From positions 57,600,001-57,664,000 of the forward strand of contig NC_086097.1 in assembly GCF_963921235.1 (NCBI RefSeq): a stretch of DNA of 64,000 bases, given 5' to 3'. This stretch comes from Mobula hypostoma (Eukaryota). The notes below the pieces were generated by a model. That model had not been told where the DNA came from. It saw only the letters and a list, made by a program, of their open reading frames with translations, and did no database searches. Shown piece by piece: positions 14,025-56,449 of the stretch (positions within the stretch are counted from its first letter, which is position 1; each line of letters opens with the position of its first letter). Both the position numbers and the translations under genes were made by a program.

Positions 14025-14828
14025 AGTTGCTGGTGAACGCAGCAGGCCAGGCAGCATCTCTAGGAAGAGGTACAGTCAACGTTTCAGGCCGAGACCCTTC
14101 GTCAGGACTAACTGAAGGAAGAGTTAGTAAGAGATTTGAAAGTGGGAGGGGGAGGGGGAGATCCAGAATGATAGGAGAAGACGGGAGTGGGAGGGATGGA
14201 GCCAGAGCTGGACAGGTGATTGGCAAAGGGGATATGAGAGGATCATGGGACAGGAGGCCCAGGGAGAAAGACAATGGGGGGGGAACCCAGAGGATGGGCA
14301 AGGGGTATAGACAGAGGGAGAAAAAGGAGAGTGAGAGAAAGAATGTGTGTATAAAAATAAATAACGGATGGGGTACAAGAGGGAGGTGGGGCATTAGCGG
14401 AAGTTAGAGAAGTCAATGTTCATGCCATCAGGTTGGAGGCTACCCAGACGGAATATAAGGTGTTGTTCCTCCAACCTGAGTGTGGCTTCATCTTTACAGT
14501 AGAGGAGGCTGTGGATGGACGTGTCAGAATGGGAATGGGATGTGGAATTAAAATGTGTGGCCACTGGGAGATCCTGCTTTCTCTGGCAGACAGAGCTTCT
14601 TGACTCCATCCCTCCCCTTCCTGTCTTCTCCTATCATTTTGGATCTCCCCCTCCCCCTCCCACTTTCAAATCTCTTACTAACTCTTCCTTCAGTTAGTCC
14701 TGACGAAGAGTCTCAGCCTGAAATGTCGACTGTACCTCTTCCTAGAGATGCTGCCTGGCCTGCTGCGTTCACCAGCAACTTTGATGTGTGTTGCTTGAAT
14801 TTCCAGCATCTGCAGAATTCCTGTTGTT
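14025..14828 (-). mobile_element. Penelope-like element 3' part with an inverted terminal-repeat copy
   Basis: GIY-YIG C-terminus (ORF 14394-14609); inverted arms; TSD catgctctcttctc at 14011-14024 and 14829-14842; inserted into an older LINE fragment. Confidence 0.9.
14074..14109 (-). ncRNA. Minimal type-I hammerhead ribozyme motif (GUU site)
   Basis: Minus strand reads agtc-CTGACGA-agggtctcggcct-GAAA-cg-TT-gact. Confidence 0.7.
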
Positions 14829-15694
14829 CATGCTCTCTTCTCGCTGCTGCCACCAGGAAGAAGGTACAAAAGCCGCAGCACCCACACCACCAGGTTATTA
14901 CCCCTCAATCAATAGGCTGTTGCAACAGTGGGGATAACTTCACTTGCCCCAATCGGTGGACTGATCCCACAGCTCACTTTCAATTCCTAAAAAAGGGAAA
15001 GAATGTGGGACTGGCAGAAGGTAATATGGCTTTCCATATAATAGGAGGGACAAATAGCAGTTCTAGGGAAATTGTTGTATTAGAAGTAGGCTACACTGAG
15101 CACACAGCATCGAAACAGATCATTTGGCCTAACCAATCTGTGCTGGTTACTTTGCTTCCCTCAAGCCATCTTCTATTCTTTTTAATGTCAGCCTATCAGC
15201 ATTTCCCTTGTTTTCATGTGCTCTTGAATACTTATCCAGACGCAACATGAATGCATCTAAACTGTTTACCTTAGCCTCTCTCGGTGCTAGTGAGATCAAC
15301 ATTCTCATTGCCCTTTTGATGATGCTTTCAGTTCACTCTGTAGAATCATACAGCACAGAAGTAGTTCCTTCAGCCCTCTATGTCCATGCTGACCATTCAA
15401 GTACCTGTCTATACTCTTCCCACTTATTAGCAGTTTGCCTTTGCTTATCTTTAAGACAATTGAATGACTTGCCAAATGCTTCTTAAATTTTGTAAGGGAA
15501 CTTGCCTCCACCCCTTTCTTGGATTGTGTGTTCCAGATTGTAGCCACTCTCTGTGTGGGGGAAACAAGACATTTCTCAGATCCTCTCTAGATATCTTACT
15601 TGCTTAGACCTATGCCCTCTGGTTTTAAACACCTCTGTTTGGAAAAATGTTTCATATCATCCACCTATCTATTCATTTCAAGATTTTGAAACCT

Positions 15695-16033
15695 TTACTT
15701 CTTCTCACCTGCCTATTACTTGCCCCTGGGTGCCCTCCTCTTTCTCTTTCTCCTATGGTTCACTCTCCTCTCCCATCAGACTCCTTCTTCTCCAGCCCTT
15801 GACCTTTCCCGCGCACATGGCTTCATCTATCACCTTCCAGTTAGCCTCTTTCTCCTTCCCCTATCTTTTTATTCTGGCATCTTCCCGCTTCCTTTCCAGT
15901 CCTGAAGAAGGGCCTTGGCCTAAAATGTTGACTATCAGTTAATTTCTATAGATGCTGCCTGACCTGCTAAGTTCCTTTAGCATTTTGTGTGTGTTGCTTT
16001 GGATTTCCAACATCTGCAGACTTTCTCGTGTTT
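15695..16033 (+). mobile_element. Older PLE terminal-repeat fragment with a mutated hammerhead core
   Basis: agtcCTGAAGAagggccttggcctAAAAtgttgact followed by the family 3' end. Confidence 0.7.
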
Positions 16034-16536
16034 ATGATTTGTACCTGAATCAGGTCTGCTCCAAGAAGAGCAAACCTATCCCTTCTCATAATTGAACCAT
16101 TCCATTCCAGGGAACATCCTGGTGAATCTCCCTGCAACATCTCCAGTGCAATCACATCCTTCCTATAGTGTTATGGCTAGAACTGCATTCAAAAGTCCAG
16201 CACCAATGTTTTTATAAAGTTGTTCAAGACTTTATTATATTATATGATTGGACTAATGAAGGCAAGCATCCCAAATGCTTCTTCATCATCCAACCTACCT
16301 GTGCTGCCACCTTCAGGGTTCTTTGGACTTAGACTCTCAGGTCCTTTTGCTCCTCAGTGCTCCCTCCACTCATGGATACATATATGTCCATTACCCTAGT
16401 TAGACAGGAAAAATATCACTTGTGATCTCATTGAATGGTGGAGTAGACAAGTAAGGCTAACCTAAGTTTCTTACATTTTACCTTATTTATTTTACCAAAA
16501 TGTAATACCTAACACCCATGTTTAAATGCATTCATT

Positions 16537-16726
16537 TAAAGAAGGTGGGGGAGGGTTGGACCACCTTCTTTATAGGGCCTCTGCCCCTTCCCTCTTCAGT
16601 CCTGACGAAGGGTTCCGGCCCGAAATGTCGACTCATCATTTCCATGGATGCTGCCCGACCTGCTGAGTTCCTCCAGCGTGTTGTGAGTGTTGCTTTGACC
16701 CCAGCATCTGCAGAGTATTTTGTGTT
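16537..16726 (+). mobile_element. PLE terminal-repeat fragment of a second subfamily, with a short 5' inversion
   Basis: 12-bp hairpin taaagaaggtgg/ccaccttcttta at the 5' end; hammerhead; cagcatctgcag tail. Confidence 0.75.
16598..16633 (+). ncRNA. Minimal type-I hammerhead ribozyme motif (GUC site)
   Basis: agtc-CTGACGA-a-gggttccggccc-GAAA-tg-TC-gact. Confidence 0.7.
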
Positions 16727-17106
16727 CTCTTAACCGCTTACTGCTGTTATCTGTTTTGTGTCCTGAAACCAGACAACTATTCACTCTGCTGCGTGCCTCA
16801 AAACTTTTACATGGGACCTTATCAAAAGATCTTGAAATAAAGATAAAAGTACATTTACAGAATTACTCACATGTATTTGCAGTTCTGTGTGGTGGGGGCA
16901 GAAAGCACAAAAGAAACTGCAGTCGTGGAACAAAGTATTTCTGAATGAAGACTGGTCAAAACACATAAACTTGTTAAAATGTCATTATTTTGATTCTCTG
17001 TATGTTTTGGATTATTTAAATTTGATATTTAACTGTGAGCATCAAACAAATGGCCTATAGGATATGTTCCAGTACAGTATGTGTAAACTGAGACAGTTTC
17101 AAAGGG

Positions 17107-17324
17107 CCATACATCAAAGTTGCTGGTGAACGCAGCAGGCCAAGCAGCATCTATAGGAAGAGGCGCAGTCGACGTTTCAGGCCGAGACGAACTCCTGACG
17201 AAGGGTCTCGGCCTGAAACGTCAACTGCGCCTCTTCCTATAGATGCTGCTTGGCCTGCTGCGTTCACCAGCAACTTTGATGTATGTTGCTTGAATTTCCA
17301 GCATCTGCAGAATTCCTGTTGTTT
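17107..17324. mobile_element. Palindromic PLE-derived mini-element 1
   Basis: ~80-bp inverted arms with 1 mismatch; TSD acagtttcaaaggg at 17093-17106 and 17325-17338. Confidence 0.92.
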
Positions 17325-18394
17325 ACAGTTTCAAAGGGATAGCTTCTGCCTTGTAGGTAATGTTTTTGTTTGAGTTCTGTATTTTAGCTACAAATTATTG
17401 TCTCCACTCACACACTGAACACTGCAGGTGTGAGACTCTGTAAGTACAACATCCATAGGCCACGGTGAATACATTTATTTTCATAAGAGTTAGACGGATT
17501 AGAATCTAGCTCATGACAAAAGGCATACTGCTGGAGATTCCCCATTTTCTTTCTAAAATTAAATTGTTTATTAAAAAGAAGTTTAGTACAGCTTGACTGA
17601 TTTAATGCAAAGGAGAATTATTACTGTTCAAACCATAAATTTAATTGTGTTTTCCATTTTCCCTGTTCATTTAAAGCTTATTAATTTATCCAATGCAAAA
17701 ACAAAAAAACAGGCTAGGCAGTATCTGTGGAAAAGGAAATAGAGTTAAAGTTTCAGGTTGACTAATATTCATTAGAATCATCAACTCTTTTTCTTTCCAG
17801 AGATATTGACTGACCAACTCTCTGTAGCATTTTCTACATTGTTCTAGCATCCTCAGCTTTTTATTTTTATATATTGCTGTGATTTATGTGTTAAATAATT
17901 CAAAACTAATGACAGCAATGGCCCATGTGCTACCTAGGCACTAAGGGTTCAGACGACGACGAATGACAGCAATTCTGAAACGTATTGTTTTATCATTCAA
18001 AAAATTAGTTAGAAATTCATTTGTCAGGAACTTCTGCTGCTGGTGTTAGTAGGCATTCCAGAATTAAGCTAATGTTCCTTGATTTGCATTGATGCTATAT
18101 CTGGAACATTGCCCTACATAGGAAGGTCTGAAAATAAAGCATATGAATTCCACACCCATGTCAATATTCTTTGCCTGAAAAATCTTATGTCATCTTGGAC
18201 ATATCTCTGCTGGGTTGTAATAAACTGATACTGATTTGACGCTGTTTGTGTTGCACTAATTTCCTACGATAGCCACAGTCATGCAAATTTTTGATTCACA
18301 GAATTCAATCAGCTTTGCCTTTTTATATAATGCTTATTTTGACCAATTATAAGATGTCTTCACCTATTAGACAAGTGGATGCAAGATAGGGACT

Positions 18395-18702
18395 ATAGGC
18401 ATCTGTTAGTCTCGTGAGACCATGGATTTACACCTTGGAAGGTTTCCAGGACGCAGGCCTGGGCAAGGTTGTATGGAACACCGGCAGTTGCCTATGCCGC
18501 AAGTCGCCCCTCTCCACGCCACTGATGTTGTCGAAGGGAAGGGCACTAGGGCCGATACAGCTTGGCACCCGTGTCGTCGCAGAGCAATGTGTGGTTCAGT
18601 GCCTTGCTCAAGGACACAACACACTGCCTCCCTCAGCTGAGGCTCAAACTAGCGACCTTCAGATCACTAGACCGACGCCTTAACCACTTGGCCACATGCC
18701 AA
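18395..18702 (-). mobile_element. Near-full-length tRNA-derived SINE (CORE-like)
   Basis: Minus strand has ggcatgTGGCCAAGTGGttaagg...GTTTGAGCC and gtgtccttgagcaaggcact. Same family as 12543. Confidence 0.8.
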
Positions 18703-18719
18703 GACTATGTGAACTTCAA

Positions 18720-19575: not shown

Positions 19576-19730
19576 GAGGTATACCTGCTTTTCTGCTGAT
19601 TCTTATTAATTTCTAGGTAGTTAAGATCAAAAGTAAGTAATTGAAATACAAATTAGGAACAATGCAATTGAACTGGCCTGTAGCATTCATGAGTTTATGT
19701 TTATGTTAACATCTTTGAAATGTTCTTCTA

Positions 19731-19906: not shown

Positions 19907-21629
19907 TATAGTAATGTTTGAAACACATAATTTTAATTATATTATGATTAAAAGATTCAAATTTATATCTGTGCATTAGTATTTTGTTAGAAAATTAAAA
20001 CCAGCCTAACAAAAATTTATTGCAGATTGTGGTAACTTTGTTTATTCATCCAATGGCGAATATTTTCATTTGCTATTTTCTGCATTACCACAAGATGGCA
20101 GGTGTAGTCAACCATAATGTTGGATATCACAAAAATTCCCAAACCCTGATTTGATTACCATGTGAACGGCAAGATGATTAAGATTTCTATGAGGTAATCT
20201 TTCATTTAAATTCTGATTCTTTGCTGTTCTATGGTTTTACTAATCCATCCTTCTAGTAAGGTAGTTGCTTGTCAGCACTTTGTTCGTGCTGGTATCTGAC
20301 ATGCGGCATTAGATTCTGAAAATACTACAGCTGACCCCTCTGCAATTCAACTGCTATTGAGCTTAAAATTTAATAAATTTTTATTAGCTTTTGTGAATAG
20401 CAGATAGATAATGTTGTCTACTATTGGTGCAACAGGCTTCTAAGTTTAGCTAGTAACTTTTCATAAACTATACTGGTATCTGTCCCCCACGTTTCCTTCG
20501 CTACATCGACGACTGCATTGGCGCTGCTTCCTTCATGTCTGTTGAGCTCGTTGACTTCATTAACTTTGCCTCCAACTTTCACCCTGCCCTCAAGTTTACC
20601 TGGTCCATTTCCGACACTTCCCTCCCCTTTCTAGATCTCTCTGTCTCTATCTCTGGAGACAGCTTATCTACTGATGTCTACTATAAGCCTACGGACTCTC
20701 ACAGCTATATAGACTATTCTTCTTCTCACCCTGTCTTTTGCAAAAATGCCATCCCCTTCTCGCAATTCCTCCGTCTCCGCCACATCTACCCTCAGGATGA
20801 GGCTTTTCATTCCAGGACAAAGGAGATGTCCTCCTTTTTTAAAGAAAGAGGCTTCCCTTCCTCCACCATCAACTCAAACACATCCCTCCCATTTCACGCA
20901 CAACTGCTCTCACCCCATCCTCCTGTCACCCTACTAGGATTAGGGTTCCCCTTGCCCTCACCTACCACCCCACCAGCCTCTGGGTCCAACATATAATTCT
21001 CTGTAACTTCCGCCACCTCCAACGGGATCCCACCACTAAACACATCTTTCCCTCCACACCATCTGCTTTCCATAGGGATCGCTCCCTACGCGACTCCCTT
21101 GTCCATTCATCCCCCCCATCCCTCCCCACTGATCTCCCTCCTGGCACTTATCCTTATAAGCGGAACAAGTGCTAACATGCCCTTACACTTCCTCCCTCAC
21201 TACCATTCAGGGCCCCAGACAGTCCTTCCAGGTGAGGTGACATTTCACCTGTGAGTCGGCTGGGGTAATATACTGCGTCCTGTGCTCCCGATGCGGCCTT
21301 CTATATATTGGCGAGACCCGACACAGACTGGGAGACCGTTTCACTGAACACCTACGCTCTGTCCGCCAGAGAAGCAAGATCTCCCAGTGGCCACACATTT
21401 TAATTCCACATCCCATTCCCATTCTGCTAAGTCTATCCACGGCCTCCTCTACTGTAAAGATGAAGCCACACTCAGGTTGGAGGAACAACACCTTATATTC
21501 CATCTGGGTAGCCTCCAACCTGATGGTATGAACACTGACTTCTCTAACTTCCGTTAATGTCCCACCTCCCCCTCCTATCCCATCCGTTTTATATACATAT
21601 ATTTAAAAAATATATATATATATATAAAT

Positions 21630-22480
21630 AATGTAGTAACTCCAAAAACATGTTCACTGTTTTCATGAGATTTGGTGGCTTTTAGCAAATCAGTCTTTAA
21701 AGGTAGTTCTGAAACTGCTAGCCATGGGTATTTCACCATCTGCTTCTGCAATACCATGCCAAAATATTTACCTCGAGCAAAAAATATTAATGTCTATTGG
21801 GTCAACCAATAAATAACACAATTACTATTGACAATCTAACAATGCAGCATCACATCTGTGTAAAAACTTTAAATCGGCTTATTAATTTAAATAGAGAAAG
21901 AGAGAACCTGTGGATTGCCGAATACCAGATGAATTGCGATAGTCTTTGGGGTAACTGTAAGGTCTGTGTTTCTGCTATCGCTTAGCTCGCACTTGTGCTC
22001 AGTAGCGGGTGTGGTTTTTGTTGTGCCAGTGGGGGGAGGGGAGATTGTTGCTCGCCGCCGCTTACGCACGGGAGGGAGAAGCTGGGGGTACTTTGGGGTT
22101 CTCACATTTAACTGTCATTCATTCTTCGGGGCATTTCTCTGTTTTTGTGGATATTTTGCAAAGAAAAAGCATTTCAGGATGTATATGGTATACGTTTCTC
22201 TGACATTTAATTGAACCTTTGAAATGTTATCTTGGTTCCAATCTTTAGAAATGTCATCAAACTTAAACATTAATAATATTTTGCTCTCCACATATACTGC
22301 TTGACCTGATGAAAGTATGCAGTAGTTTCTGATTTTAAGTCAGATTTCCAGCATCTGCAGTTTTGTTTTTTGCTTCATTATCTACTATCAAACATGAAAC
22401 AGGAAAGAAAGTGAAATAAAAAAGAAGAAAGGTGTCATGCTTTTGCAGAGATGGCAGGACACTCCAATGGGCACAGCAAT
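21630..22480 (-). repeat. Inverted duplicate (derived copy) of 24576-25426
   Basis: 851-bp reverse-complement match with a few percent differences; flanked on both sides by (TA)n. Confidence 0.95.
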
Positions 22481-22742
22481 ATATATATATATATATTTCT
22501 TTTTCTCTCTCTCCTTTTTCTCCCTCTGTCCCTCTCACTATACTCCTTGCCCATCCTCTGGGCTTCCCTCCTCCCCCTTTCTTTCTTCGTAGGCCTCCCA
22601 TCCCATGATCCTCTCATATCCCTTTTGCCAGTCAACTGTCCAGCTCTTGGCCCCATCCCTCCCCCTCCTGTCATCTCCTATCATTTTGGATCTCTCCCTC
22701 CCCCTCCCACTTTCAAATCTCTTACTAGCTCTTCTTTCAGTT

Positions 22743-22778
22743 AGTCCTGATGAAGGGTCTCGGCCCGAAATATCGACT
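22743..22778 (+). ncRNA. Minimal type-I hammerhead ribozyme motif (AUC site)
   Basis: agtc-CTGATGA-a-gggtctcggccc-GAAA-ta-TC-gact. Confidence 0.7.
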
Positions 22779-24279
22779 GTACCTCTTCCTATAGATGCTG
22801 CCTGGCCTGCTGCGTTCACCAGCAACTTTTATGTGTGTTAACTTTTCATAATGCTGATCTAGATCTCAGCACTAACAGAAAATGGATAAACAGGAAGAAG
22901 GCAGCCTAACTAATCTCATGCTCCTGTGTGTTTAGTTCTGGAGTGTATTTGGAAGTACTGCTGTAGCAAGTATTTTACTTATCCTTTTAATTGGGGAATA
23001 ACTAAGAAAGTAATATTTAAATGGAAAGAAGGTACACAATTGATGGATGAAAATGTATTTTTTGTGAACCTAGATGCCGTGCATTTAAAGTTGCTGATGG
23101 TGTTGATTGAAGAAGACTTGCAGATTAGGGTGGTGAAAGATCTTTTTTTTGTGTTTAGTAGAGTCACAATTCTCATTGTTTGCTTGAATCATCAGATTGA
23201 CAGAGGAGGTTTGGGTAATTTCATTAACAGTCCTTCTGACAATACTGTGTGCCATCACTGCAGAATGGCTCGTACTGAACAAAGGTCTATGTGAAACCCT
23301 TCACAATTTCAGGACACCCAGAAACATATTAGCTTTTGCAGCTAATTAAGTACTTTTGAAGTGCAGTCAATGTTGTAATGATGGAAACATGGCAAATTTA
23401 CACAGTGATAATGATCACATAATCTGTTCTGGTGAAGTTAATTGAGCATTAAATCTTAGCCAGCACACTTTGGAGAACTAATCTGTTTTCCTTGTAAAAA
23501 GTTCCAGTCGGATCTTTTATGTACACACGTATGGGAAACTGGAATCTTGATTAGCACTGTATTAGAGTGTCAGCCTAGATTTTTGTGCTCAAATCTGGAC
23601 CCTGAATACACAACTCTTGAACACAAGGAGTGTGAGTACTTCCAACGGAGACACGCAAAATTACAAGCTCATATTCAGAGGTGAGCTTGAACTCGTGCTT
23701 TTCTGGTTTACAAAGTTAAGCTGGAACAAGAGTTGCTTTCTTCGTACTTATTCGTTGTTGAAATTGTTTATCCTAGACTTTGGGATAAAATCACAACCAT
23801 CATAATTGTACTTCTTATATCCTACCTGCACATGACCCTTCAGGAAATAATCACCATCAAATGTCTATGAAAGATGGTCAACAGGTAATATGCTTAAGAA
23901 GATTGGGAAGGCCTCCCTTTATCAAGTTCCATTTTGCAACTTGCACTATATTTGTAAAATTCGTTGCTGGAGGATATCAGACCATTAATGTGGGTCAGGG
24001 CTGTGACTTGAGGAAATTCATCAGTTCTGTAGCTCCAGAAAGGGTACAGAAAAGGAGAATGTGATTCAGTAAAGCAGGAAAATGACTACCTCTGATCCTA
24101 ACTTATACTCAATGGTTGATTACACAGACCTATAAATTTCTGTTTATTTCATCAAATAATGTGTTCTTTTGGTTGGGTGAAAGAAACTATTGGATTGTCC
24201 AAACAAACTGCAATCTGACAGAGAGTTTCCTACTTTACAAATGTTGAATATTTTGCCTGCAAAATACTTGCTTTTACAA

Positions 24280-24587
24280 CACAGAGGGGCCATTCAGCTC
24301 ATCAGAGCAATTGAATCATTTTGATTCGCCCACTTTGTTTTTTCACTATGGCCGTACAGCTTACTTTGTTCCTCATTCCCATCAACTCCCTGTTGATTCT
24401 TTTGCCACTTACATATACTCTGAGTAATTTGAAGTAGCCATTTAACCTACCAACATGTCTATGGAATGTGCAAGGAATTGTGGAATATGCATCAAAAATC
24501 TTGCAAACTCAATGTAAACATTACCCAAGGTCAGAATTGAAGCTACCTTCATTGAGCTGTGAGACAACTGTGCTAATTGCTGTGCCC
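24280..24587 (-). mobile_element. Degenerate tRNA-derived SINE (V-SINE/HE1-like)
   Basis: Minus strand starts ggcacagcaattagcacagttgtctcacagct and has a CR1-like 3' tail. Confidence 0.55.
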
Positions 24588-25426
24588 ATTGGAGTGTCCT
24601 GACATCTCTGCAAAAGCGTGACACCTTTCTTCCTTTTTATTTCACTTTCTTTCCAGTTTCATGTTTGATAGTAGATAATGAAGCAAAAAACAAAACTGCA
24701 GATGCTGGAAATCTGACTTAAAATCAGAAACTACTGCATACTTTCATCAGGTCAAGCAGTATATGTGGAGAGCAAAATATTATTATTGTTTAAGTTTGAT
24801 GACATTTCCAAAGATTGGAACCAAGATAACATTTCAAAGGTTCAATTAAATGTCAGAGAAACGTATACCATATACATCCTGAAATACTTTTTCTTCGCAG
24901 AATATCCACAAAAACAGAGAAGTGCCCCAAGGAATGAATGACAGTTAAATGTGAGAACCCCAAAGTACCCCCAGCTTCTCCCTCCCGTGCGTAAGCGGCG
25001 GCGAGCAACAATCTCCCCTCCCCCCACTGGCAAAACAAAAAACGCACCCGCTACTGAGCACATGCGTGAACTAAGCGGTAGCAGAAACACAGACCTTACA
25101 GTTACCCCAAAGACTATCGCAATTCGTCTGGTATTTGGCAATCCACAGGTTCTCTCTCTCTCTATTTAAATTAATAAACCGATTTAAAGTTTTTACACAG
25201 ATGTGATGCTACATTGTTAGATTGTCAATAGTAATTGTGTTATTTATTGGTTGACCCAATAGACATTAATATTTTTTGCTCGAGGTAAATATTTTGGCAT
25301 GGCATTGAAGAAGCGGATGGTGAAATACCCATGGCTAGCATTTTCAGAACTACCTTTAAAGACTGATTTGCTAAAAGCCACCAAATCTCATGAAAACAGT
25401 GAACATGTTTTTGGAGTTACTACATT
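24576..25426 (+). repeat. Donor copy of the inverted duplication; contains a short non-autonomous element (24833-25165) of the same family as 54685-55062
   Basis: Continuous with the flanking SINE. ORF-track peptides mirror those at 21887-22214. Confidence 0.93.
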
Positions 25427-25478
25427 GACAATGTTGTGCTTCACTGGATTAAGATAGAGGAGAAGTAGTCTGGCATAA

Positions 25479-28945: not shown

Positions 28946-31900
28946 TTAGATTATGAGGACACGCTGTCCTCTTTTATTGTCATTTAGTAATGCATGCATT
29001 AAGAAATAGAAACCATAGAAACCATAGAAACTACAGCACAGAAACAGGCCTTTTGGCCCTTCTTGGCTGTGCCGAACCATTTTCTGCCTAGTCCCACTGA
29101 CCTGCACACGGACCATATCCCTCCATACACCTCCCATCCATGTATCTGTCCAATTTATTCTTAAATGTTACAAAAGAACCCGCATATACCACCTCGTCTG
29201 GCAGCTCATTCCATACTCCCACCACTCTCTGTGAAGAAGCCCCCCCAATGTTCCCTTTAAAGTTTTCCCCCCTCACCCTTAACCCATGTCCTCTGGTTTT
29301 TTTCTCCCCTTGCCTCAGTGGAAAAAGCCTGCTTGCATTCACTCTATCTATACCCATCATAATTTTATATACCTCTATCAAATCTCCCCTCATTCTTCTA
29401 CGCTTCAGGGAATAAAGTCCTAACCTATTCAACCTTTCTCTGTAACTGAGTTTCTCAAGTCCCGGCAACATCCTTGTAAACCTTCTCTGCACTCTTTCAA
29501 CCTTATTTATATCCTTCCTGTAATTTGGTGACCAAAACTGAACACAATACTCCAGATTCGGCCTCACCAATGCCTTATACAACCTCATCATAACATTCCA
29601 GCTCTTATACTCAATACTTCGATTGATAAAGGCCAATGTACCAAAAGCTCTCTTTACGACCCTATCTACCTGTGACGACACTTTTAGGGAATTTTGTATC
29701 TGTATTCCCAGATCCCTCTGTTCCACTGCACTCCTCAGTGCCTTACCATTAACCCTGTATGTTCTACGTTGGTTTGTCCTTCCAACGTGCAATACCTCAT
29801 ACTTGTCAGTATTAAACTCCATCTGCCATTTTTCAGCCCATTTTTCCAGCTGGTCCAAGTCCCTCTGCAGGCTCTGAAAACCTTCCTCACTGTCTACTAC
29901 ACCTCCAACCTTTGTATCATCAGCAAACTTACTGATCCAATTTACCACATTATCATCCAGATCATTGATATAGATGACAAATAACGATGGACCCAGCACT
30001 GATCCCTGTGGCACACCACTAGTCACAGGCCTCCTCTCAGAGAAGCAATTCTCTACCACCACTCCCTGGCTTCTTCCATCGAGCCAAAGTCTAATCCAAT
30101 TTACCACCTCTCCATGTATACCTAGCGACTGAATTTTCCTAACTAACCTCCCATGCGGGACCTTGTCAAAGGCCTTACTGAAGTCCATGTAGACAATATC
30201 CACTGCCTTCCCTTCATCCACTTTCCTGGTAACCTCCTCGAAAAACTCCAACAGATTGGTCAAACGTGACCTACCATGCACAAAGCCATGTTGACTCTCC
30301 CTAATAAGCACCTGTCTATCCAAATGCTTGTAGATTCTGTCTCTTAGTACTCCCTCCAATAACTTACCTACTACTGACGTTAAACTCACCGGCCTATAAT
30401 TTCCCGGATTACTTTTCGATCCTTTTTTAAACAACGGAACAACATGAGCCACTCTCCAATCCTCCGGCACTTCACCCGTAGACAGCGACATTTTAAATAT
30501 TTCTGCCAGGGCCCCTGCAATTTCAACACTCATCTCCTTCAAGGTCCGAGGGAACACTCTGTCAGGTCCCGGGGATTTATCCACTTTAATTTTCCTCAAG
30601 ACAGCAAGCACCTCCTCCTTTTTAATCTGTACAGTTTCCATGGTCTCACTACTTGATTCCCTCAATTCCATAGATTTCATGCCAGCTTCCTTAGTAAATA
30701 CAGACGCAAAAAACCTATTTAAGATCTCCCCCATTTCCTTTGGTTCCGCACAAAGCCGACCACTCTAATCTTCAAGAGGACCAATTTTATCCCTTACAAT
30801 CCTTTTGCTCTTAATATACTTGCAAAAGCTCTTTGGATTATCCTTCACTTTGACTGCCAAGGCAACCTCATGTCTTCTTTTAGCCCTCCTGATATCTTTC
30901 TTAAGTATTTTCTTGCACTTCTACACTCCTCAAGCACCTGATATACCCCCTGTTTCCTATACATTTCATACAACTCCCTCTTCTTCTTTATCAGAGTTGC
31001 AATATCCCTTGAGAACCAAGGTTCCTTATTCCTATTCAATTTGCCTTTAATCCTGACAGGAACATACAAACTCTGCACTCTCAAAATTTCCCCTTTGAAG
31101 GCTTCCCACCTACCAATCACATCTTTGCCAGAGAACAACCTGTCCCAATCCACGCTTTTTAGATCCTTTCTCATTTCTTCAAATTTGGCCTTCTTCCAGT
31201 TCAGAACCTCAACCCTAGGACCAGATCTATCCTTGTTCATGATCAAATTGAAACTAATGGCGTTATGATCACTGGAACCAAAGTGCTCCCCTACACAGAC
31301 TTCCATCACTTGCCCTAATTCGTTACCTAACAGGAGATCCAATATTGCATCCCCTCTAGTTGGTCCCTCTATATATTGATTTAGAAAACTTTCCTGAACA
31401 CATTTTACAAACTCTAAACCATCTAGACCCAATGATACAATGTTCCTCCAGTATGATATCACAGAAACACAAGACAGACCAAGACTAAAAAAACTGACAA
31501 AAACCACATAATTATAACATATAGTTACAACAGTGCAAAGTAATACTGTAATATGATAAAAAACAGACCACGGGCACGGTAAAAAAAGTCTCAAAGACTC
31601 TCGAAAGTCCAGTCATCTCACGCAGACGATAGAAGGGAGAAACTCTCCCTGCCATGAACCTCCAGCGCCGCAAACTTGCCGATACAGCACCCTGGAAGCA
31701 CCCGACCACAGCTGACTCTTGAGTCCGTCCGAAAACTTCGAGCCTCCAACCAGCCCTCTGACACCGAGCACCATCTCTGCCGAGCGCTTTGACCCTGGCC
31801 CCGGCAACAGGCAATAGGCAAAGCCGAGGATTCAGGGCCTTCCCCTCCGGAGATTCTTGATTGTACAGTAGCAGCGGCAGTGAAGCAGGCATTTCAGATG

Positions 31901-32017: not shown

Positions 32018-32526
32018 TCCTCCCCTCCTTTGCTTATGGAAACAGCTTTTCTCTCTATGTAGGATTTTAAATAACGGATCATGAATCATTAAAGTACTAG
32101 AAATTCTAAGTGGGAATACTTTGTGCTAATTGCTCCATTTTCAATTCTGTTAGTAATTTTTCAAAAGCTGAAGTGTAACTTCAATTACATTCATTCATGG
32201 GCTGCACAGGTGTCAGGCATTCCCATGCTTAATCATCTATAAGTGACTTGTTACTGATGTCCTCTTCACCCAAGTCTTCCATCATCAACATCCTGAAAGG
32301 GGTCACCACTGACCAGAAACTCATCTGGTCAGCTGTGATCACATAACAACCCTCATAAATACTGTGGCTATAAAGATCAGATGAGAGCCTGAGCATCCCG
32401 TGACAAATGACTTGCATTACCTTTCCATCATCTACAAGGTTCAAGTCAAGAGCTGGATGAATGTAGTTCCTGCAACACTCGAGAAGCTCAACAACACCCA
32501 GGACAAAGCAGTTTGCTTTACTAGTA

Positions 32527-32753
32527 AACAACAGGAATTCTGCAGATGCTGGAAATTCAAGCAACACACATCAAAGTTGCTGGTGAATGCAGCAGGCCAA
32601 GCAGCATCTATAGGAAGAGGCGCAGTCGACGTTTCAGGCCGAGACCCTTCAGTTAGTCCTGACGAAGGGTCTCGGCCTGAAACGTCGACTGCGCCTCTTC
32701 CTATAGATGCTGCTTGGCCTGCTGCGTTCACCAGCAACTTTGATGTGTGTTGC
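32527..32753. mobile_element. Palindromic PLE-derived mini-element 2
   Basis: ~90-bp inverted arms; TSD ttgctttactagta at 32513-32526 and 32754-32767. Confidence 0.92.
32655..32690 (+). ncRNA. Minimal type-I hammerhead ribozyme motif (GUC site)
   Basis: agtc-CTGACGA-agggtctcggcct-GAAA-cg-TC-gact. Confidence 0.78.
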
Positions 32754-37345: not shown

Positions 37346-37799
37346 AAAAAGATAAAGCCCAGGAACTGGTCCTTCAGTTCAAATCATCTATGCCAATCAA
37401 AATAAACACCTAGACTCTAGTTTCATTTCTCTGTATTTAGACCATGTCCCTCTAACCCTCCTCTATCCATGTACTTGTTCAAACATGTTTTAAACAGTTT
37501 AATTGTAATTTGCCACTGCCATCCTGTGGCAGCTCGTTTCATATATTTACCATTCTCTGTGTGAAAACTTGCCTTCAGATTCCCTTTAAATATTTCCCCT
37601 CTCACCTTAAATCTAGGCCTTCTAGTTTGAGAATCCTCTACCCTAGGAAAAAGCCTGTGACTATCCAATCTATACCCCTCATAATTTTATAAACTTTGAT
37701 AAGGTGACCCCTTCAGTCTCATTTGTTCATGATAAACCAATCCAGCCTACTTAATCGCTCCTGATAACTCAAGTCCTCCAATCCAAGCAACATTGCTGT

Positions 37800-39078
37800 A
37801 ACACACATCAAAGTTGCTGGTGAACGCAGCAGGCCAGGCAGCATCTCTAGGAAGAGGTACAGTCGATGTTTTGGGCCGAGACCCTTCATCTGGACTAACT
37901 GAAGGAAGAGCTAGTAAGAGATTTGAAAGTGGGAGGGGGAGGGGGAGATCCAAAATGATAGGAGAAGACAGGAGGGGGAGGGATGGAGCCAAGAGCTGGA
38001 CAGTTGATTGGCAAAAGGGATATGAGAGGATCATAGGACAGGAGGCCCAGGGAGAAGGAAAGGGGGGAGGGGGGGAAACCCAGAGGATGGGCAAGGGGTA
38101 TAGTGAGAGGGACAGAGGGAGAAAAAGGAGAGAGAGAGAAAGAATGTGTGCATATAAATAAATAACGGATGGGGTACGAGGGGGAGGTGGGGCATTAGCG
38201 GAAGTTAGAGAAGTCAATGTTCATGCCATCAGGTTGGAGGCTACCCAGACGGAATATAAGGTGTTGTTCCAACAACCTGAGTGTGGTTTCATCTTCACAG
38301 TAGAGGAGGCCGTGGATAGACATATCAGAATGGGAATGGGATGTGGAATTAAAATGTGTGGCCACTGGGAGATCCTGCTTTCTCTGGCGGACAGAGCATA
38401 GGTGTTCAGCAAAACAATCTCCCAGTCTGCTTCGGGTCTTGCCAATATATAGAAGGCCACGTCGGGAGCACCGGACGCAGTATATCACACCAGCCGACTC
38501 ACAGGTGAAGCGTCGCCTCACCTGGAAGGACTGTCTGGGGCCCTGAATGGTGGTAAGGGAGGAAGTGTAAGGGCATGTGTAGCACTTGTTCCGCTTACAA
38601 GGATAAGTGCCAGGAGAAAGATCAGTGGGGAGGGATGGGAGGGACGAATGGACAAGGGAGTTCGCATTGGGAGCGATCCCTGCAGAAAGCAGAGAGAGGG
38701 AGGAGGGAAAGATGTGCTTAGTGGTGGGATCCCGTTGGAGGTGGCGGAAGTTACGGAGAATAATATGTTGGACCCGGAGGCTGGTGGGGTGGTAGGTGAG
38801 GACCAGGGGAACCCTCTCATATCCCTTTTGCCAATCACCTGTCCAGCTCTTGGCTCCATCCCTCCCCCCTCCTATCTTCTCCTATCATTTTGGATCTCCC
38901 CTTCCCCCTCCCACTTTCAAATTTCTTACTAGCTCTTCCTTCAGTTAGTCCTGATGAAGGGTGTTGGCCCGAAACGTCGACTGTACCTCTTCCTAGAGAT
39001 GCTGCCTGGCCTGCTGCGTTCACCAGCAACTTTGATGTGTGTTGCTTGAATTTCCAGCATCTGCAGAATTCCTCGTGT
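37800..39078 (-). mobile_element. Penelope-like element (GIY-YIG) with an inverted terminal-repeat copy, inserted in an old CR1
   Basis: ORF 38195-38521 GVIYCVRC..LYIG; TSD caacattgctgt at 37788-37799 and caacattgatgt at 39079-39090. Confidence 0.92.
38947..38982 (+). ncRNA. Minimal type-I hammerhead ribozyme motif (GUC site)
   Basis: agtc-CTGATGA-a-gggtgttggccc-GAAA-cg-TC-gact. Confidence 0.75.
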
Positions 39079-39119
39079 CAACATTGATGTGAATCTTTTC
39101 TGCACCCTCATCACCCTCA

Positions 39120-50793: not shown

Positions 50794-52247
50794 TAATCTC
50801 AAGCTAAAGAGCTGCACAGGGCAGAACCAACAGTGCATGCTATGAAGACAGAGGGGCAGAGCACAAGGTGTTTCCCAAAGCAACAGCATAGTAAAGAAGT
50901 GGGATCAAGTGGTAACTGCAGTTAATTCGGAAGAGGAATCATTCCGTAAAGTGCAGCAAAGCTACCAAGAGAAAGGTGCACACAGTTGCTGAGGAGATGG
51001 AAGAACTCTTTGTAGATTCTCTGCAGACTGTTGGTGAGACAGAATGGATTGTTCCAGTGACTGCAAATGAGACAATAATTCCATTCAAGCTTGACACAGG
51101 AGCCCAGGTGAATCTGTTATCCATGGATGATTACAAGTCCCTCAAAGTAAAGAGCAAGATTTACCCAGTGAAGTTAAAAGTGACTGTCTATAATGGAGAG
51201 AATGTTACAGTAAAAGGATTTGTATAGTGACCTTGAAGCACAAGGGGCAGCGCCTAAAGGCATGGCTACTGGATGTAGAAAAGAGAATCCAGCCAATATT
51301 AGAAAAGTGTGAAAAGCTTAACTTTTTGTGAAGAGTTTTTGTAGGGGCTTAACAGACCAGCGATGACCAGGCAATACTCAATAAAGAGTACGCAGATGTC
51401 TTTGAAGGGCTCAGATGCTTACCTGATTTAACTCAAGAAACTTATAATAGCATTCAGGAGAGATCCAGAGGGGTTGTACAGGAGAAGCAGAAGAACTCTA
51501 CCTTCCAGAGACATCTGTACCAGCTACACCACCACGACAGTCAGGATTCCAGTGTGGAACAGAGTGATCATGATGAAGAAGTCGCCAGTTTTGCTACATC
51601 ACACAGCTGTAGTTTAAAATCTGTCTCTCATCGACTCCAGTTTAAGACTGGAAATCAAAAATATCTCCACGATTCTCTCCGAAGTTGAAGAGGAAAAATA
51701 AAAAAAGAAGATGGGTGAACACACAGGTCAGAACTATAGCAACAAGTCAGCACAGACCGACAGGAGGAGTTGCAGTCTATGATATACAGCGAACAGAAGG
51801 AGCTCCGTTAATTGAGACAGACTCAGTTGGAACTTGTGCAAAGATTCACTGATCACATGGATGTATTCCAGGGCTCCATTATGAGGCAAGAACAACAAGA
51901 ACAAAAGCAAAGGCGAACAGATAAAATCTTGGCAAAAGGATGTGAAAGAATTGAACACATAGATCAGAGTTCTCAAAAGGACACTGGTATTAATGCAGCA
52001 AGTGAAAGCAAGATATCAGTGGAAACAAATAACAATCCTAAAGGGTTCGTTAAGCCGCTACAGTGACAGATTGAGAGTGGCTGAGTGAATGGGGGACTGT
52101 ATTTGCTTATTACAATTGAAGTTAATGTAAAAATCTTAGGAAAACATTATTGTGCTTTGCAGACTTATGAGGACATTGTATTGTGTTTGTTTTCCTTTAA
52201 AGGGTGATGGTGTGTTATTATGTGTGTACATGGTAAAGAACTTCAGT

Positions 52248-52609
52248 CAACACATACAAAATGCTGGAGGAACCCAGCAGGTCAGGCAGCATCTATAAAA
52301 GAGTGTAAACAGTTAACATTTCCAGCTGAGACCCTTCATCACGACTGGTTGTGGGTTTGGGTGAGCATATGGTCGAAAGTCGGAAGGCAGCAGAGATTAC
52401 GGGGGGAGCAGTGAGAGAGGGTTTTACTGAAATCCCGTCAAAGGGAAGAGACTTTGCAGTGTAGCAGTAGTACAAAGATGAGAAAATCTGCAGATGCTGG
52501 AAACCCAAGCAACACACAAAATGCTGGAGGAACTCACCAATACGTTGACTGTTTGCTCTTTTCCTGGCCTTCTGAGTTCATATAGCATTTTGTGTGCAGA
52601 TTTTCTCAT
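52248..52609. mobile_element. Older rearranged PLE terminal-repeat insertion inside the 3' LTR
   Basis: TSD taaagaacttcagt at 52234-52247 and taaagaactttagt at 52610-52623; degenerate hammerhead at 52311-52346 (minus). Confidence 0.8.
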
Positions 52610-54102
52610 TAAAGAACTTTAGTTCCCAGTGGGCAATGTGGGTGGTTCACCCGGAACTGGAAGTGACATTGGTGAAGGGGACACATAGGCTCTTGGTGGA
52701 CTAGAGAGTCCTGGAGTAAAATGTGGTCAAGTTTAAGCCATTCTGTAAACTGTAAATAAAATAGTTACAGCATTTTTACCCATGCAAGTTTGTCTTTGTT
52801 AAAGAACAGACATAACATAAATGACTGGGCAAACATGGGTTGGTTTTATTGATATGTATATTCAATGCCATGGCCCAACAGTAAAGGAAATCTCCCTGGA
52901 ATGTAAGGAATTTAAACAATTTGATTGCATTACTCCCAATTTTAAGTTGCATTGATTGTGTTTAAAATGCTCTGTCCATTTTAGCTAGACTAGGATCAGT
53001 ATTCAAAATTGCTGTTGTCTTTTTCAATTTAGCTATCCCGTTTGCTGTAAAAATGAAGAAAATGCCTTTTAGTACTTCCTAGTTTACAGAAGTATACGCA
53101 GTATGTTACTGCTCAAGGCCAGGTGGGATGGGAAACGGAGTAGTCAGCTCCAACAACTGATGTGTTTATTTATTTATTAATTATTATTATTTTTCTTTTT
53201 CTCTTCTATATTACGTATTGCATTGAACTGCTGCTGCTAAATTAACAAATTTCATGCCAATGCCGGTGATAATAAACCTGATTCTGATTCTGAATTGCAA
53301 AACGTACAATGATGTTTGAATAAATCATAAATCCTTATGCACTACGTCTAATATATAAAATTCAGAAAACTTTTAAAATGCATTTCATCACCTGTGATAT
53401 AATTTGTATTTTATGCACAACAGGGAAATCAGTTTGTAAAATCAAAGTTAATGCAGAATAGCAGTTTTCATATTAACAAGTGACACATATCAAATGTATA
53501 TGAGCAAAATGCTTTTCTTGTAACATAACTAAGGAGAAAATGTGATCATCAAAGAAATGCAAATTGCATTGAGAGAGATGTTTTGAGGTGACCTATTCTA
53601 CTTCAGAGTGCCATCTGGCTTTCAAAAATATCTTGTAATGATGAACCACATATCAGCTAGACTTAGTATGCTCAAGGAACTGTTGGAAGGACAATCTGTC
53701 AATGATCCTTGAAAGTTGGATAATGTTGCGTTAAATGGCCCCAGGTGCTCCATTCAAGCTTAAGAAGATAGCATTTGTACTTCGAGAACACCATCTGTGA
53801 CAACAGGTTTGTTAGGTATTTAAAGTGTGTAGTTGAAAGCGATTGATGTCAAAGTCAGTAGAATCGAGTATTAAGAGAAAACATGTAAATAATATTGTTC
53901 CAAGTCTTTCAGAGTGGGAATGATGCACAATTTCTCACAGGTGCTAGTAATTTGCCTATTTGTTTGCAGGAAGTTGTAGCCTTAGATAATTTTTTTGATT
54001 TATGAAACATCTTGACAAGTGACAGCATAGCTTAGTAAAAGAGCTTTTAATGCCTTCAAGATTGTAGGTTTTTAATGGATCGGACAGTGATATAAACTTT
54101 AC

Positions 54103-54285
54103 AAATAAACAAACTGCTGGAGTAACTCAGCAATCAGACATCATCCATGACGGTAGAGAGATAGTCAATGTTTCAGATTGAGACCCTACATCAGGAACTC
54201 CCTGACCTGCTGAGTTCCTCCAGCAGTTTGTTTTTTTTCTCTCTCTTTGCTTCAGATTCCAACATCTGCAGTGTCTTGAATCTCC
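54103..54285. mobile_element. Old PLE-derived fold-back fragment
   Basis: aaacaaactgctggagtaactcagca and tgctgagttcctccagcagtttgttt inverted arms around a decayed hammerhead. Confidence 0.65.
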
Positions 54286-56221
54286 ATATAAACTTTGCAA
54301 ATATTTTTGTAATCAAAGTGTTTGGACCTTTGCTCTTGCACCTTATGTAGCCGTATTGAGCCTGGATCTGGAGTATTGAGCTCCTTACCTGATGAAAAGG
54401 GAGTGCAGCAAAGGTTCTCCAGGCTTTTCCTGGGATGCTGAGTCCATCATATGAAGAAAGATTGAGTAGGATGGACCTTTATCCTCTAGAGTTTAGAAAA
54501 GTGATTGGTCTCCTTATGTGACATGTTTATTTAGTGGACAACCAGATGACTTCGGGGAGAATGTTTCCTCTCTAAGGAGTCTACCACTAAGTGTCACAAT
54601 CTCAAAATACAGGTTAGGCCATTATGGAACAAACTGAGGAGAAATTTCTTCACTCAGCTAATGGTGAATCTTTGCATTATTTGGATGTTTGTGGAGTGAA
54701 ATGGGGACTCCTCTTTTTCCCTTATTAGGGAGAGAGAGAGAGAGCCTGTGGCATGTCGAATTACCCGGTGAACAAGTAGTCTTTGGGGTACTGCAAGTCA
54801 GTGTTTTTATTGATGCTTTGCTAAATGCCTAAGTGCTTGGTGGAGGGTGCAGATGCTGTTTTGCTGGTGGGGGGGGGTCGTCATTTGCTGCTGCTTATGC
54901 ATGGGAGGGGGAGCTGGGGGGGCTTTGGGGTTCTAACATTTAAGTGTCATTCACTATTTGGGGCACTCCTCTGTTTTCGTGGATGTTTGCGAAGAAGTAG
55001 AATTTCAGGATGTATATTGTACATTACTCTGACATTAAATGTACCTATTGAAACCTATTGAATTAATTACATTCAAAACTCAATATATTTCTGAATATCA
55101 GTCATCAGGAGATTTGCATGTAGGGTAGGAAAATGACACTGCGATAGAATATTGCATAAGATCATGTTGAATGGAAGACTAGGTTCAATGGACTGAAAGA
55201 CCTACTCTAATTTTTACACCTTTTGTGTCCCTGTTATGCTCTTATTTACCTCCATCATTTTCTGAATAAAAAATTATTCAGTCATTTTATTTAGTAATCA
55301 AAGTAGCAAGGTAAAATGGACAATCAAAAAGTAATTGAGTTAAGAGTAGAGTGCTTCCACCAGAACAATTGTATTAGCTGAAAGGATATTTAGGTGATTA
55401 ATTTGGTCAATCCATAATGGATAACCACAGATCTTATTTTTACAACTTCCAGGTGATCCATTATGCTCAGATGCAGGAACAAGGAAGTGCCTCCAAATAT
55501 TTATCTGTCCGCTTTCAGATCTCTGTAAAAAGAACAGTCTAGGTGCTTTTCTTAATGGAAGCAGAGATATGTTTGCTTATAAAAAATAAAATAATTCCAA
55601 TTTCTTGTTGCTGAATAGATAATTGAATTCAAGTGCAATTGAAAATGCTTCAGGAGTTTGATTTTAAAATTCCAGTTATTAATCTAATACTTTTGTACAA
55701 ATGCTACCATTCTGCATATTTATAATTCCGGCCAATTTTTCATTTTTCCATTCTATTTTTTTAATCTTTTCTACAATTAAAAGTATTAACTACTTTCAAA
55801 ATTATTTTGATAATACTTGAAATATCACAGCTTCCTGTCTCATCTTTGCGAAGGAATATGGAAGTCTTTAGGGTGTCTTGAGAAAGGAGGATGAAAGCAA
55901 GGTTTACTACCTTAAGTACTCCCTTTGAAGTTGGTTTTCTAAAATGAATACAGGTTGAGTACTCCTTATCTGAAAATCCAAACTCCGTAAACTTCCGAAA
56001 TCCAAAGTTTTTTTGGGTGTTAACGCGACAGCACAAATTTCACAAAACACTAGGAAGGCTCCCAGGTGATGCGCAGGTCTCTGCACACCACAGACATTTC
56101 TGAAAAGTGACCTTATAATGAACAAAAGTTAATGAAAAAAATGTAAAACATTGCATTAAGCAAAAAATGAAGAGCTTGAATGTGTATTTGTCAGCGTCAG
56201 AGTGAACATACTATATGGTGG

Positions 56222-56449
56222 CAACATACATCAAAGTTGCTGGTGAACGCAGCAGGCCAAGCAGCATCTATAGGAAGAGGCGCAGTCGACGTTTCAGGCC
56301 GAGACCCTTCGTCAGGACTCTGACGAAGGGTCTCGGCCTGAAACGTCGACTACGCCTCTTCCTATAGATGCTGCTTGGCCTGCTGCGTTCACCAGCAACT
56401 TTGATGTATGTTGCTTGAATTTCCAGCATCTGCAGAATTCCTGTTGTTT
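56222..56449. mobile_element. Palindromic PLE-derived mini-element 3
   Basis: ~95-bp inverted arms with a 4-nt loop; TSD atactatatggtgg at 56208-56221 and 56450-56463. Confidence 0.93.
56284..56319 (-). ncRNA. Minimal type-I hammerhead ribozyme motif (GUC site)
   Basis: Minus strand reads agtc-CTGACGA-agggtctcggcct-GAAA-cg-TC-gact. A second core lacking stem I starts at 56320 on the plus strand. Confidence 0.78.

Follow-up and report, generated by a model that had tools for sequence, protein, structure and literature searches.

Several short repeats in this ray DNA carry what looks like a hammerhead ribozyme, which raises the questions of whether the motif belongs to a Penelope-like element (PLE) and whether it cuts the RNA from which that element inserts. 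Within the 64-kb stretch analysed (the window), the repeats comprise 15 arms in 10 insertions. We hold with high confidence that their motifs are minimal type-I hammerheads in the end repeats of an endonuclease-bearing (EN+), likely Neptune-type ray PLE, and that the copies are likely dead insertions derived from uncut RNA. The motif is the PLE minimal hammerhead already described, and the finding, although real, is of an ordinary kind.

The motif spans 36 nt: a 4-bp stem I, CUGANGA, one extra A, a 4-bp stem II, GAAA, a palindromic stem III that has no loop, and UH. It is present at all 12 positions given in the initial annotation, where minus-strand copies were listed by their low coordinate, and the minimal type-I architecture proposed there is supported. 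The remaining three arms are partial; those starting at 17188(-) and 32650(-) have no CTGANGA, and that at 56316(+) has an intact core and has lost the 5′ strand of stem I. The motif arms are real, but they belong to 10 insertions and not to a dozen or more independent elements. The six copies proposed to be intact, at 14074(-), 16598(+), 22743(+), 32655(+), 38947(+) and 56284(-), all combine an intact core (CTGANGA, GAAA and UH) with 4/4 pairs in both stems; no other arm does. Among the 13 arms that span the motif, nine have an intact core and eight have fully paired stems I and II (six of these with an intact core). Of the copies said to be damaged, those at 15898, 37896, 52346 and 54198 are each damaged in the core, whereas those at 14696 and 17191 are affected in a stem only.

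The unpaired nucleotide that separates position 9 from position 10.1 is A in 13/13 arms. Stem III (15.2-16.2), which has no helix III loop, was initially given as ACGU. This is correct for 4/6 intact copies and 6/13 arms, but the others read ATGT (four), ACAT (two) or ATAT (one), as CpG decay would give, and four pairs remain possible in a dimer for 11/13 arms. At 10.1-11.1 the typical G-C pair occurs in only five of 11 distinct rows because 11.1 is U in about half (five G-U, one unpaired). In the four public sequencing runs compared with the window, out of 23 that all consist of assembled contigs, and whose RNA status is a guess, T at 38970 makes up 10-67% of the depth. A strict pattern matched six times in the window and a loose pattern seven times, with 0 expected and 0 found in 100 dinucleotide shuffles for either. 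Scanning with the strict motif gave 0 matches in viral contigs and one in metagenome contigs (L001, a contig with ten ORFs of at least 50 aa).

Table 1. Hammerhead motifs and insertions in the window (TSD, target-site duplication).
Feature	Position	Strand	Description
Hammerhead	14109-14074	-	core and stems intact, N17 = U
Hammerhead	14696-14731	+	core intact, stem II damaged
B-type (diverged family) hammerhead	15898-15933	+	G12 lost; arm to about 16032 with tail; TSD search negative
B-type (diverged family) hammerhead	16598-16633	+	intact, stem III ATGT; arm to about 16726; TSD search negative
Hammerhead	22743-22778	+	intact, stem III ATAT
Hammerhead	32655-32690	+	intact, stem III ACGT
Hammerhead	37896-37861	-	damaged: U4 and G12 changed
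Hammerhead	38947-38982	+	intact, private GTTG loop, stem III ACGT
B-type hammerhead	52346-52311	-	C3 changed, both stems damaged; arm to about 52248; TSD search negative
B-type hammerhead	54198-54163	-	damaged: A9 changed
Hammerhead	56319-56284	-	intact, stem III ACGT
Insertion I1, family A1	14025-14828	both	minus arm 14596-14025: 3′ end of EN ORF, 3′ UTR, hammerhead, no tail
Insertion I1	14598-14828	+ arm	hammerhead and tail; head-to-head with minus arm; TSD 14011-14024 / 14829-14842
Insertion I4, subfamily A2, short fold-back	17107-17324	both	minus arm without tail, starting at 17188 in stem II
Insertion I4	from 17193	+ arm	tail; intact core, broken stem I; TSD 17093-17106 / 17325-17338
Insertion I5, family A1	20468-22838	+	5′-truncated PLE; frameshifts, stops; TSD 20454-20467 / 22839-22852
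Insertion I5, RT C-terminal half (FLRYIDD)	about 20469-20876	+	followed by linker
Insertion I5, GIY-YIG	about 21241-21557	+	
Insertion I5, 3′ part		+	3′ UTR split by 851-bp insert, then hammerhead, no tail
Insertion I6, subfamily A2, short fold-back	32527-32754	both	minus arm starts 32650: without CTGAN, tail
Insertion I6	from 32646	+ arm	no tail; TSD about 32511-32526 / 32752-32767
Insertion I7, family A1	37800-39078	both	minus arm 38815-37800: CX4CX2C linker and GIY-YIG frame 38815-38198, 3′ UTR, hammerhead, no tail
Insertion I7	38813-39078	+ arm	hammerhead and tail; TSD 37788-37799 / 39079-39090
Insertion I9, B-type	54108-54285	both	minus arm 54196-54108: damaged hammerhead, no tail
Insertion I9	from 54198	+ arm	without hammerhead, extends to tail; TSD 54090-54107 / 54286-54303
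Insertion I10, subfamily A2, short fold-back	56222-56449	both	minus arm starts 56319, no tail
Insertion I10	from 56320	+ arm	tail; intact core without the 5′ strand of stem I; TSD 56208-56221 / 56450-56463

The proposed location in PLE end repeats is supported by reverse transcriptase (RT) and GIY-YIG remnants that lie upstream of the motif in the same orientation. ORF remnants occur in 3/10 insertions, and the remaining insertions share the end-repeat sequence. FLRYIDD lies in the 20457 frame and GVIYCVLCSRCGLLYIG in the 21241 frame, giving RT followed by a C-terminal GIY-YIG with a CCHH motif; the Pfam matches to GIY-YIG are weak and below cutoff (E 0.005 and 0.0004), and tblastn placed the RT-to-EN order collinear with a 949-aa RT and GIY-YIG protein (P0012, which matches RVT_1 and GIY-YIG). 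The best named protein homologues are from Mobula (86%) and Hypanus (71-79%). Upstream of GIY-YIG the element carries a linker, CKRNKCYTC (CX4CX2C), of the CX2-5CxxC type that is given for Neptune/Nematis and as absent from Poseidon (PMC8557442), and it is because of this motif that the element is likely Neptune-type. Across 58 window frames, Pfam returned mobile-element domains, two weak matches (Pox_A32 and TBPIP) and no clear host gene. The 64-kb window contains no full-length element and no full ORF between tandem pLTRs. A conserved reading frame through the end repeat was rejected, as families A and B differ by indels whose lengths are not divisible by three.

The initial annotation held that the motif is kept across diverged subfamilies with the loops CUCG, UCCG and GUUG, and named conservation of the core over its flanks as a check. 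Between families the core is indeed kept better than the downstream sequence (41/44 versus 142/236 positions; Fisher P 8e-6, with positions treated as independent and gaps as mismatches), the rest of the motif is kept at 76/100 and the upstream flank at 30/93 (three arms). The GUUG loop, by contrast, marks no subfamily: the arm carrying GTTG at 38963-38966 is 92-96% identical to other family-A arms, and in public contigs C accounts for 97%, 97% and 89% of the depth at 38963 (runs X1, X5 and X23), so that from sequence comparison the loop is a private mutation. Among copies, non-CpG changes number 1/90 in the core versus 15/782 downstream (P = 1, on small numbers), as neutral decay of the copies would give. 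We infer that purifying selection on the motif acts in active source elements and not in inserted copies. In the alignment, 94.5% of stem cells are paired versus 12-44% in slid controls, a value not above the shuffle control. Both sides have changed in 2/10 pairs, and no covariation measure beats shuffles (31-254 of 500 shuffles reach the observed value).

The ends of the insertions speak to how they were made. TSDs of 12-18 nt flank 7/10 insertions, versus 1/300 random site pairs. In all 5/5 family-A insertions with two arms, one arm ends at +132 to +134 (tail) and its partner at +85 to +100 (no tail); among the 24 of 643 loose contig ends listed, these end points recur in public contigs at 39078 and 39044, and none lies at the cut site. 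In 4/4 runs, contigs lose their match at the two edges of the motif, 38947 (85, 95, 4 and 491 contigs) and 38984 (106, 113, 3 and 707), in line with its better conservation between families. No arm starts at the cut site (+33; 0/15), whereas 8/15 start at the motif upstream edge, between -8 and +15; two of these eight are B-type, including 52346, whose start is a homology limit because it has no TSD. The templates were therefore likely uncut. A similar picture has been reported for Poseidon of Anolis carolinensis (PAc; Frangieh et al. 2024, PMC11167929), in which the hammerhead is followed by a pair of 3′ end points separated by 30-40 nt (tail), two RT start sites match the two arm ends seen here and copies hold sequence 5′ of the cut site, as from uncut templates. 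PAc differs in its start codon at stem II, no conserved counterpart of which was seen in the ray copies, and Poseidon is described without the CX4CX2C linker of the ray element.

These features suggest a mechanism in which the endonuclease would make a staggered target cut of about 14 nt, and each target end would serve as primer for reverse transcription, which would begin at either the tail or the no-tail site, both of them internal and downstream of the hammerhead. The two cDNAs would then join head-to-head; a template whose 5′ end lay only a little upstream of the hammerhead would yield a fold-back of about 220 bp. Canonical EN+ PLE insertions (Craig et al. 2021, PMC8557442) share with the ray copies 5′ truncation, an adjacent inverted 5′-truncated copy, a 30-40 bp tail at one end, a TSD and, at the C terminus, GIY-YIG with a CCHH motif; unlike them, the window has no partial tandem or full ORF, and three of its insertions are fold-backs of about 220 bp.

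Would such copies cut? In a monomer fold model the core bases G5-G8 pair with 15.2-17 (probability 0.52-0.98), and a crude model makes two closed monomers more stable, by 2.7-7.2 kcal/mol, than two open ones joined by stem III. The lone motif RNA is therefore predicted to be an inactive hairpin and would cut only weakly. An inverted partner able to pair over the motif exists for 4/6 intact copies, and RNA of the five family-A two-armed insertions, with their inverted tail and no-tail pairs, would mask the ribozyme. Efficient cleavage as dimers, as initially stated, runs contrary to published activities: a minimal hammerhead showed no monomer cleavage and low dimer cleavage (PMC4209133), and the Poseidon hammerhead of Anolis carolinensis is reported to cut only with protein (PMC11167929). 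By analogy with these PLEs, cutting would be weak, by paired copies, and probably helped by the element protein.

An efficient role has nevertheless been modelled (PMC4209133) and was the view of the initial annotation: tandem precursor copies would pair through stem III and cut after GUC, giving unit-length or circular RNA for reverse transcription. The core is kept between families, which implies selection on catalysis somewhere in the cycle, and a circular or tandem template would also leave sequence 5′ of the cut site in the arms. Such variants are said, in the title of one paper, to cleave as dimers. Against this stand the absence of any arm starting at the cut site, the predicted self-blocking of the monomer and the low rates reported even for dimers (PMC4209133). 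The anole element cuts both ways: core mutants abolish cutting, but uncut RNA was the main insertion substrate, the hammerhead was dispensable for insertion in vitro and, in the data reported, no RNA-seq ends fell at the cut site (PMC11167929). We regard efficient processing as unlikely. A still less probable reading is that the motif has lost catalysis in the ray lineage and persists as a signal for protein binding or for promoter/splice function at the transcript's 5′ edge. Between-family homology and many arm starts do fall at the motif 5′ edge, about half the rows have G-U in place of G10.1-C11.1, and a Drosophila virilis intron is reported to end at the 5′ end of helix I (PMC4209133). A pyrimidine tract and AG precede or overlap stem I in families A and B, but this is weak evidence because pyrimidines abound throughout the 3′ UTR; the four public contig runs showed no spliced read, and the joint retention of all catalytic core positions, the UH site and the palindrome goes beyond what a binding or splice signal by itself would require.

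We give equally little credence to the three short fold-backs (17107, 32527 and 56222) being copies of an element of their own, a non-autonomous palindrome or a retrozyme that spread as one unit. They do form their own young subfamily, A2, whose arms differ from the family majority by 0-2 changes and share diagnostic bases, and it occurs in the window only as short fold-backs. Single contigs in other public runs also link the tail back to where the hammerhead begins. Animal non-LTR retrozymes also carry a type-I hammerhead in short PLE-related repeats, with a mean unit of 363 bp in one chondrichthyan genome (PMC7229834; bioRxiv 10.64898/2026.07.22.740005). Retrozymes, however, are head-to-tail tandems, whereas the ray copies are dispersed, inverted and flanked by TSDs; the window has neither tandem units with a type-I hammerhead nor any head-to-tail pair of intact motifs. 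The arm starts at the three junctions all differ (+15/+3, +10/-8 and +1/+5); each fold-back was thus formed separately, and a single master palindrome was rejected. Long ORF-bearing insertions show the same tail/no-tail geometry and TSD length, and the fold-back RNA is predicted to form a hairpin, at -175 to -204 kcal/mol, in which the ribozyme would be buried.

The motifs resemble the minimal hammerheads in pLTRs of metazoan PLEs, including fish Xena, Poseidon and Neptune (Cervera and De la Pena 2014, PMC4209133). As far as that source describes them, the two have in common type-I topology, a 4-bp helix I, the extra nucleotide between 9 and 10.1, a palindromic 15.2-16.2 without loop 3, the position in PLE repeats and truncated elements that occur mostly as single or opposite-strand copies; the ray motifs differ in host, in a 4-bp helix II and in an 11.1 that is often U. 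We found no ray or shark PLE hammerhead in the literature searched, beyond which some supplementary sequence lists might name a chondrichthyan, and no shark or skate terms occur in the one supplement of PMC4209133 that yielded matches. In kind little is added, since PLE minimal hammerheads are already described from fishes, coelacanth, frogs and reptiles, but a likely Neptune-type ray family joins the record, at a high density of 15 arms in 64 kb. Young TSD-bounded copies, fixed tail and no-tail ends, and starts near the upstream edge rather than the cut site all bear on the role of PLE hammerheads. More speculatively, and in our estimation improbably, the fold-backs may record PLE insertion directly. 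A dimeric RT-endonuclease would hold two uncut RNAs with 5′ ends at the hammerhead upstream edge, which the palindromic stem III might pair with each other, and each nicked strand would be tied to a different priming site, so that every two-armed insertion would consist of a tail and a no-tail arm; the hammerhead would then be an RNA dimerisation or assembly checkpoint and not a template cutter. Were this true, a test could draw on the very large natural sample contained in a ray genome.

Finally, the covariance-model search suggested initially did not return the motif as a hammerhead: none of the five Rfam matches at E<=1 is one. Four are sub-threshold matches to mir-3926 on fold-backs, which arise because fold-back copies are hairpins, and the other, mir-1290, is also below its gathering score. 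Fold-back copies can be mistaken for microRNA precursors and, if transcribed, would make long double-stranded RNA.

The 36-nt unit reported at twelve positions by the initial annotation was found at all twelve, and three additional arms (repeat copies of the element end) were identified. With stem I (4 bp) read as AGTC...GACT, its 5′ strand is followed by CTGANGA and a single additional A; stem II (4 bp, loop of 4 nt) then precedes GAA, after which come the four palindromic bases of stem III, N17 and the second (3′) strand of stem I. The 15 arms fall in 10 insertions. Among the 13 arms that span the motif the core is intact in nine, and core plus both stems are complete in six, the same six that had been listed as intact. 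Scanning the window with a strict pattern gave six matches and with a looser pattern seven, against none in 100 shuffles for each; the recommended covariance-model search (Rfam) returned five matches at E ≤ 1 in the window, none of them a hammerhead. Stem III, described earlier as ACGU, has this sequence in four of the six intact copies and differs in the remainder. Across the 13 arms it reads ACGT (6), ATGT (4), ACAT (2) or ATAT (1), variants that would be expected from CpG decay.

The arms divide into family A (six nearly identical A2 arms from short fold-backs, plus five A1 arms that retain long stretches of upstream sequence) and four diverged B-type arms. The motif is indeed shared by diverged families, and one of the four B-type arms carries the TCCG loop; however, the GUUG loop marks no subfamily. 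It is private to the 38947 arm, which is 92–96% identical to other family-A arms, and in contigs from the public sequencing runs X1, X5 and X23, C accounts for 97%, 97% and 89% of depth at 38963.

Comparing the four B arms with the family-A majority, 41 of 44 core, 76 of 100 other motif and 142 of 236 downstream positions match, together with 30 of 93 upstream positions, scored in three arms because an inverted arm lies upstream of the remaining one. The core is thus conserved beyond its flanks between families, as had been anticipated (core versus downstream, Fisher P = 8e-6, with positions not independent and gaps scored as mismatches). Because contig matches stop at both motif edges, 38947 and 38984, in 4/4 runs (four organisms), the motif forms an island of homology among families, with the proviso that insertion ends, rather than homology limits, may account for some loose ends on the upstream side. 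Constraint on inserted copies within family A was not detected (non-CpG changes 1/90 in the core, 15/782 downstream, P = 1; small numbers). No measure of covariation exceeded the shuffle control; both-sided changes occur in two of ten pairs, one of which comes from an unrelated motif in the metagenome contig L001. This minimal hammerhead, at 734–772(−) upstream of a 163-aa frame, has the same core, a compensatory terminal stem I pair and a 6-bp stem II.

Assignment to the minimal hammerheads of Penelope-like elements (PLEs) holds, since all but one of the tested sequence features fit and remnants of a PLE reading frame precede the motif in the same orientation. The longest ordered stretch runs from RT (FLRYIDD) through a linker, a GIY-YIG domain with cysteines inside the motif and a 3′ UTR to the hammerhead. 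The frame pieces are collinear with a 949-aa protein having RVT_1 and GIY-YIG domains; Pfam recognises GIY-YIG only weakly and below its cutoff (E 0.005 and 0.0004). In the second, open frame the linker reads CKRNKCYTC and agrees with the CX2-5CxxC finger, which PMC8557442 assigns to Neptune and Nematis, not Poseidon; from this motif the host element is likely Neptune-type. Of 12 homologs, the nearest seven belong to Mobula hypostoma (up to 86%) and Hypanus sabinus (up to 79%), which makes a myliobatiform ray the likely source of the window. PLE-frame pieces also occur inside four ray or skate proteins named as a kinase-domain protein, mucin-2, a chitinase-domain protein and a neuromedin-U receptor (P0004, P0006, P0007, P0011), reflecting either exon capture or annotation error.

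Flanking repeats of 12–18 nt with at most one mismatch were found at 7/10 insertions versus 1/300 random site pairs. All five two-armed head-to-head family-A insertions pair one arm ending at +132 to +134 (A of AGTC = +1) with another ending at +85 to +100, and one B-type insertion has an identical layout. Both ends recur as contig loose ends, at 39044 (26 contigs, X1) and 39078 (77, 87 and 210 contigs). A tail with an inverted partner is known PLE structure (PMC8557442), and the tail has been linked to two RT start sites (PMC11167929). The three fold-backs of ~220 bp were formed separately, because each has its own junction.

None of the 15 arms starts at the cut site (+33), while eight start between −8 and +15, 52346 by homology limit only; two motif-less repeat fragments start further downstream, at ~+54 and ~+64 (16598 numbering). 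The simplest reading of these ends is that templates were uncut and that, for short copies, the template would start near the upstream motif edge. Arms that cross the cut site might also derive from a circular or tandem template. Head-to-tail pairs are absent within the window. Single contigs of X5 and X23 connect the tail region with the beginning of the hammerhead (39066 joined to 38948, and 39070 to 38946; region 38816–39085), making them candidates for short tandem units in other genomes. The boldest reading, in which the motif serves RNA dimerisation within a two-template insertion complex, seems improbable.

Minimal variants reportedly cleave as dimers, according to one paper's title. 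The earlier expectation of efficient dimer cleavage was overstated, given low published rates, a predicted closed monomer and the lack of an intact head-to-tail pair in the window. In the folding model each of the six intact monomers pairs G5–G8 with 15.2–17 (probability 0.52–0.98), which is predicted to close the core, and opening two monomers to form a 4-bp stem III carries a net cost of 2.7–7.2 kcal/mol in a crude model ignoring tertiary contacts and magnesium. Four of the six have an inverted partner, and fold-back hairpins reach −175 to −204 kcal/mol in the model, so the ribozyme would be buried. These predictions agree with the weak activity published: PMC4209133 reports that monomers did not cleave and dimers cleaved little, PMC6765202 gives very low rates for dimers too, and in PMC11167929 cutting is assisted by protein, is not required for insertion and leaves no RNA-seq ends at the site. 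If transcribed, the fold-backs are predicted to form ~80–100 bp of near-perfect dsRNA; two of three give a sub-threshold Rfam score for mir-3926, and they carry a risk of false microRNA annotation.

Families A and B both show a pyrimidine tract and AG at the 5′ edge of stem I (14676–14697 and the equivalent site in other arms), a possible 3′ splice site. TACTAAC lies upstream in two of five A1 arms and TACTAGC in the others. An intron ends at helix I in D. virilis (PMC4209133); no spliced read was seen among contigs of four runs.

Every testable sequence feature fits the PLE minimal hammerhead as described in PMC4209133, except for a consistent G10.1–C11.1 pair. That paper already covers Xena, Poseidon and Neptune of fishes, coelacanth, Xenopus and reptiles, and type-I hammerhead retrozymes are described in one chondrichthyan (bioRxiv 10.64898/2026.07.22.740005). 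No ray report of a PLE hammerhead was found in the literature searched, some supplementary sequence lists lying outside reach. In kind, the motif is already known.

The window also holds two copies of an 851-bp segment in inverted orientation, which share 97% identity, are separated by 2.1 kb and look like a local templated duplication; one copy lies inside a (TA)n tract of the PLE 3′ UTR, and a 330-bp repeat within the segment recurs elsewhere. More decayed B-type pieces without a hammerhead lie beside the 52346 arm. Two RVT_1-bearing LINE copies, 98% identical and oppositely oriented, represent a young family amid many older LINE fragments.

Positions of hammerhead arms and other features in the window
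Feature	Position	Strand	Source
Complete arm	14109	−	
Complete arm	16598	+	
Complete arm	22743	+	
Complete arm	32655	+	
Complete arm	38947	+	
Complete arm	56319	−	
Additional arm	17188	−	
Additional arm	32650	−	
Additional arm	56316	+	
Fold-back	17107–17324		
Fold-back	32527–32754		
Fold-back	56222–56449		
B-type two-armed insertion	54108–54285		
Decayed B-type pieces	52474–52600		
PLE, RT to hammerhead	20468–22838	+	
Second GIY-YIG frame, open	38815–38198	−	
Short PLE-frame piece	14596–14397	−	
851-bp segment	21630–22480		
851-bp segment, inverted	24576–25426		
330-bp repeat, further copy	54731–55053		
LINE copy	7866–9325	+	
LINE copy	29020–30475	−	
Gag-type aspartyl protease fragment	50916–51224	+	Pfam
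Tc5 transposase DNA-binding fragment	58807–59190	+	Pfam
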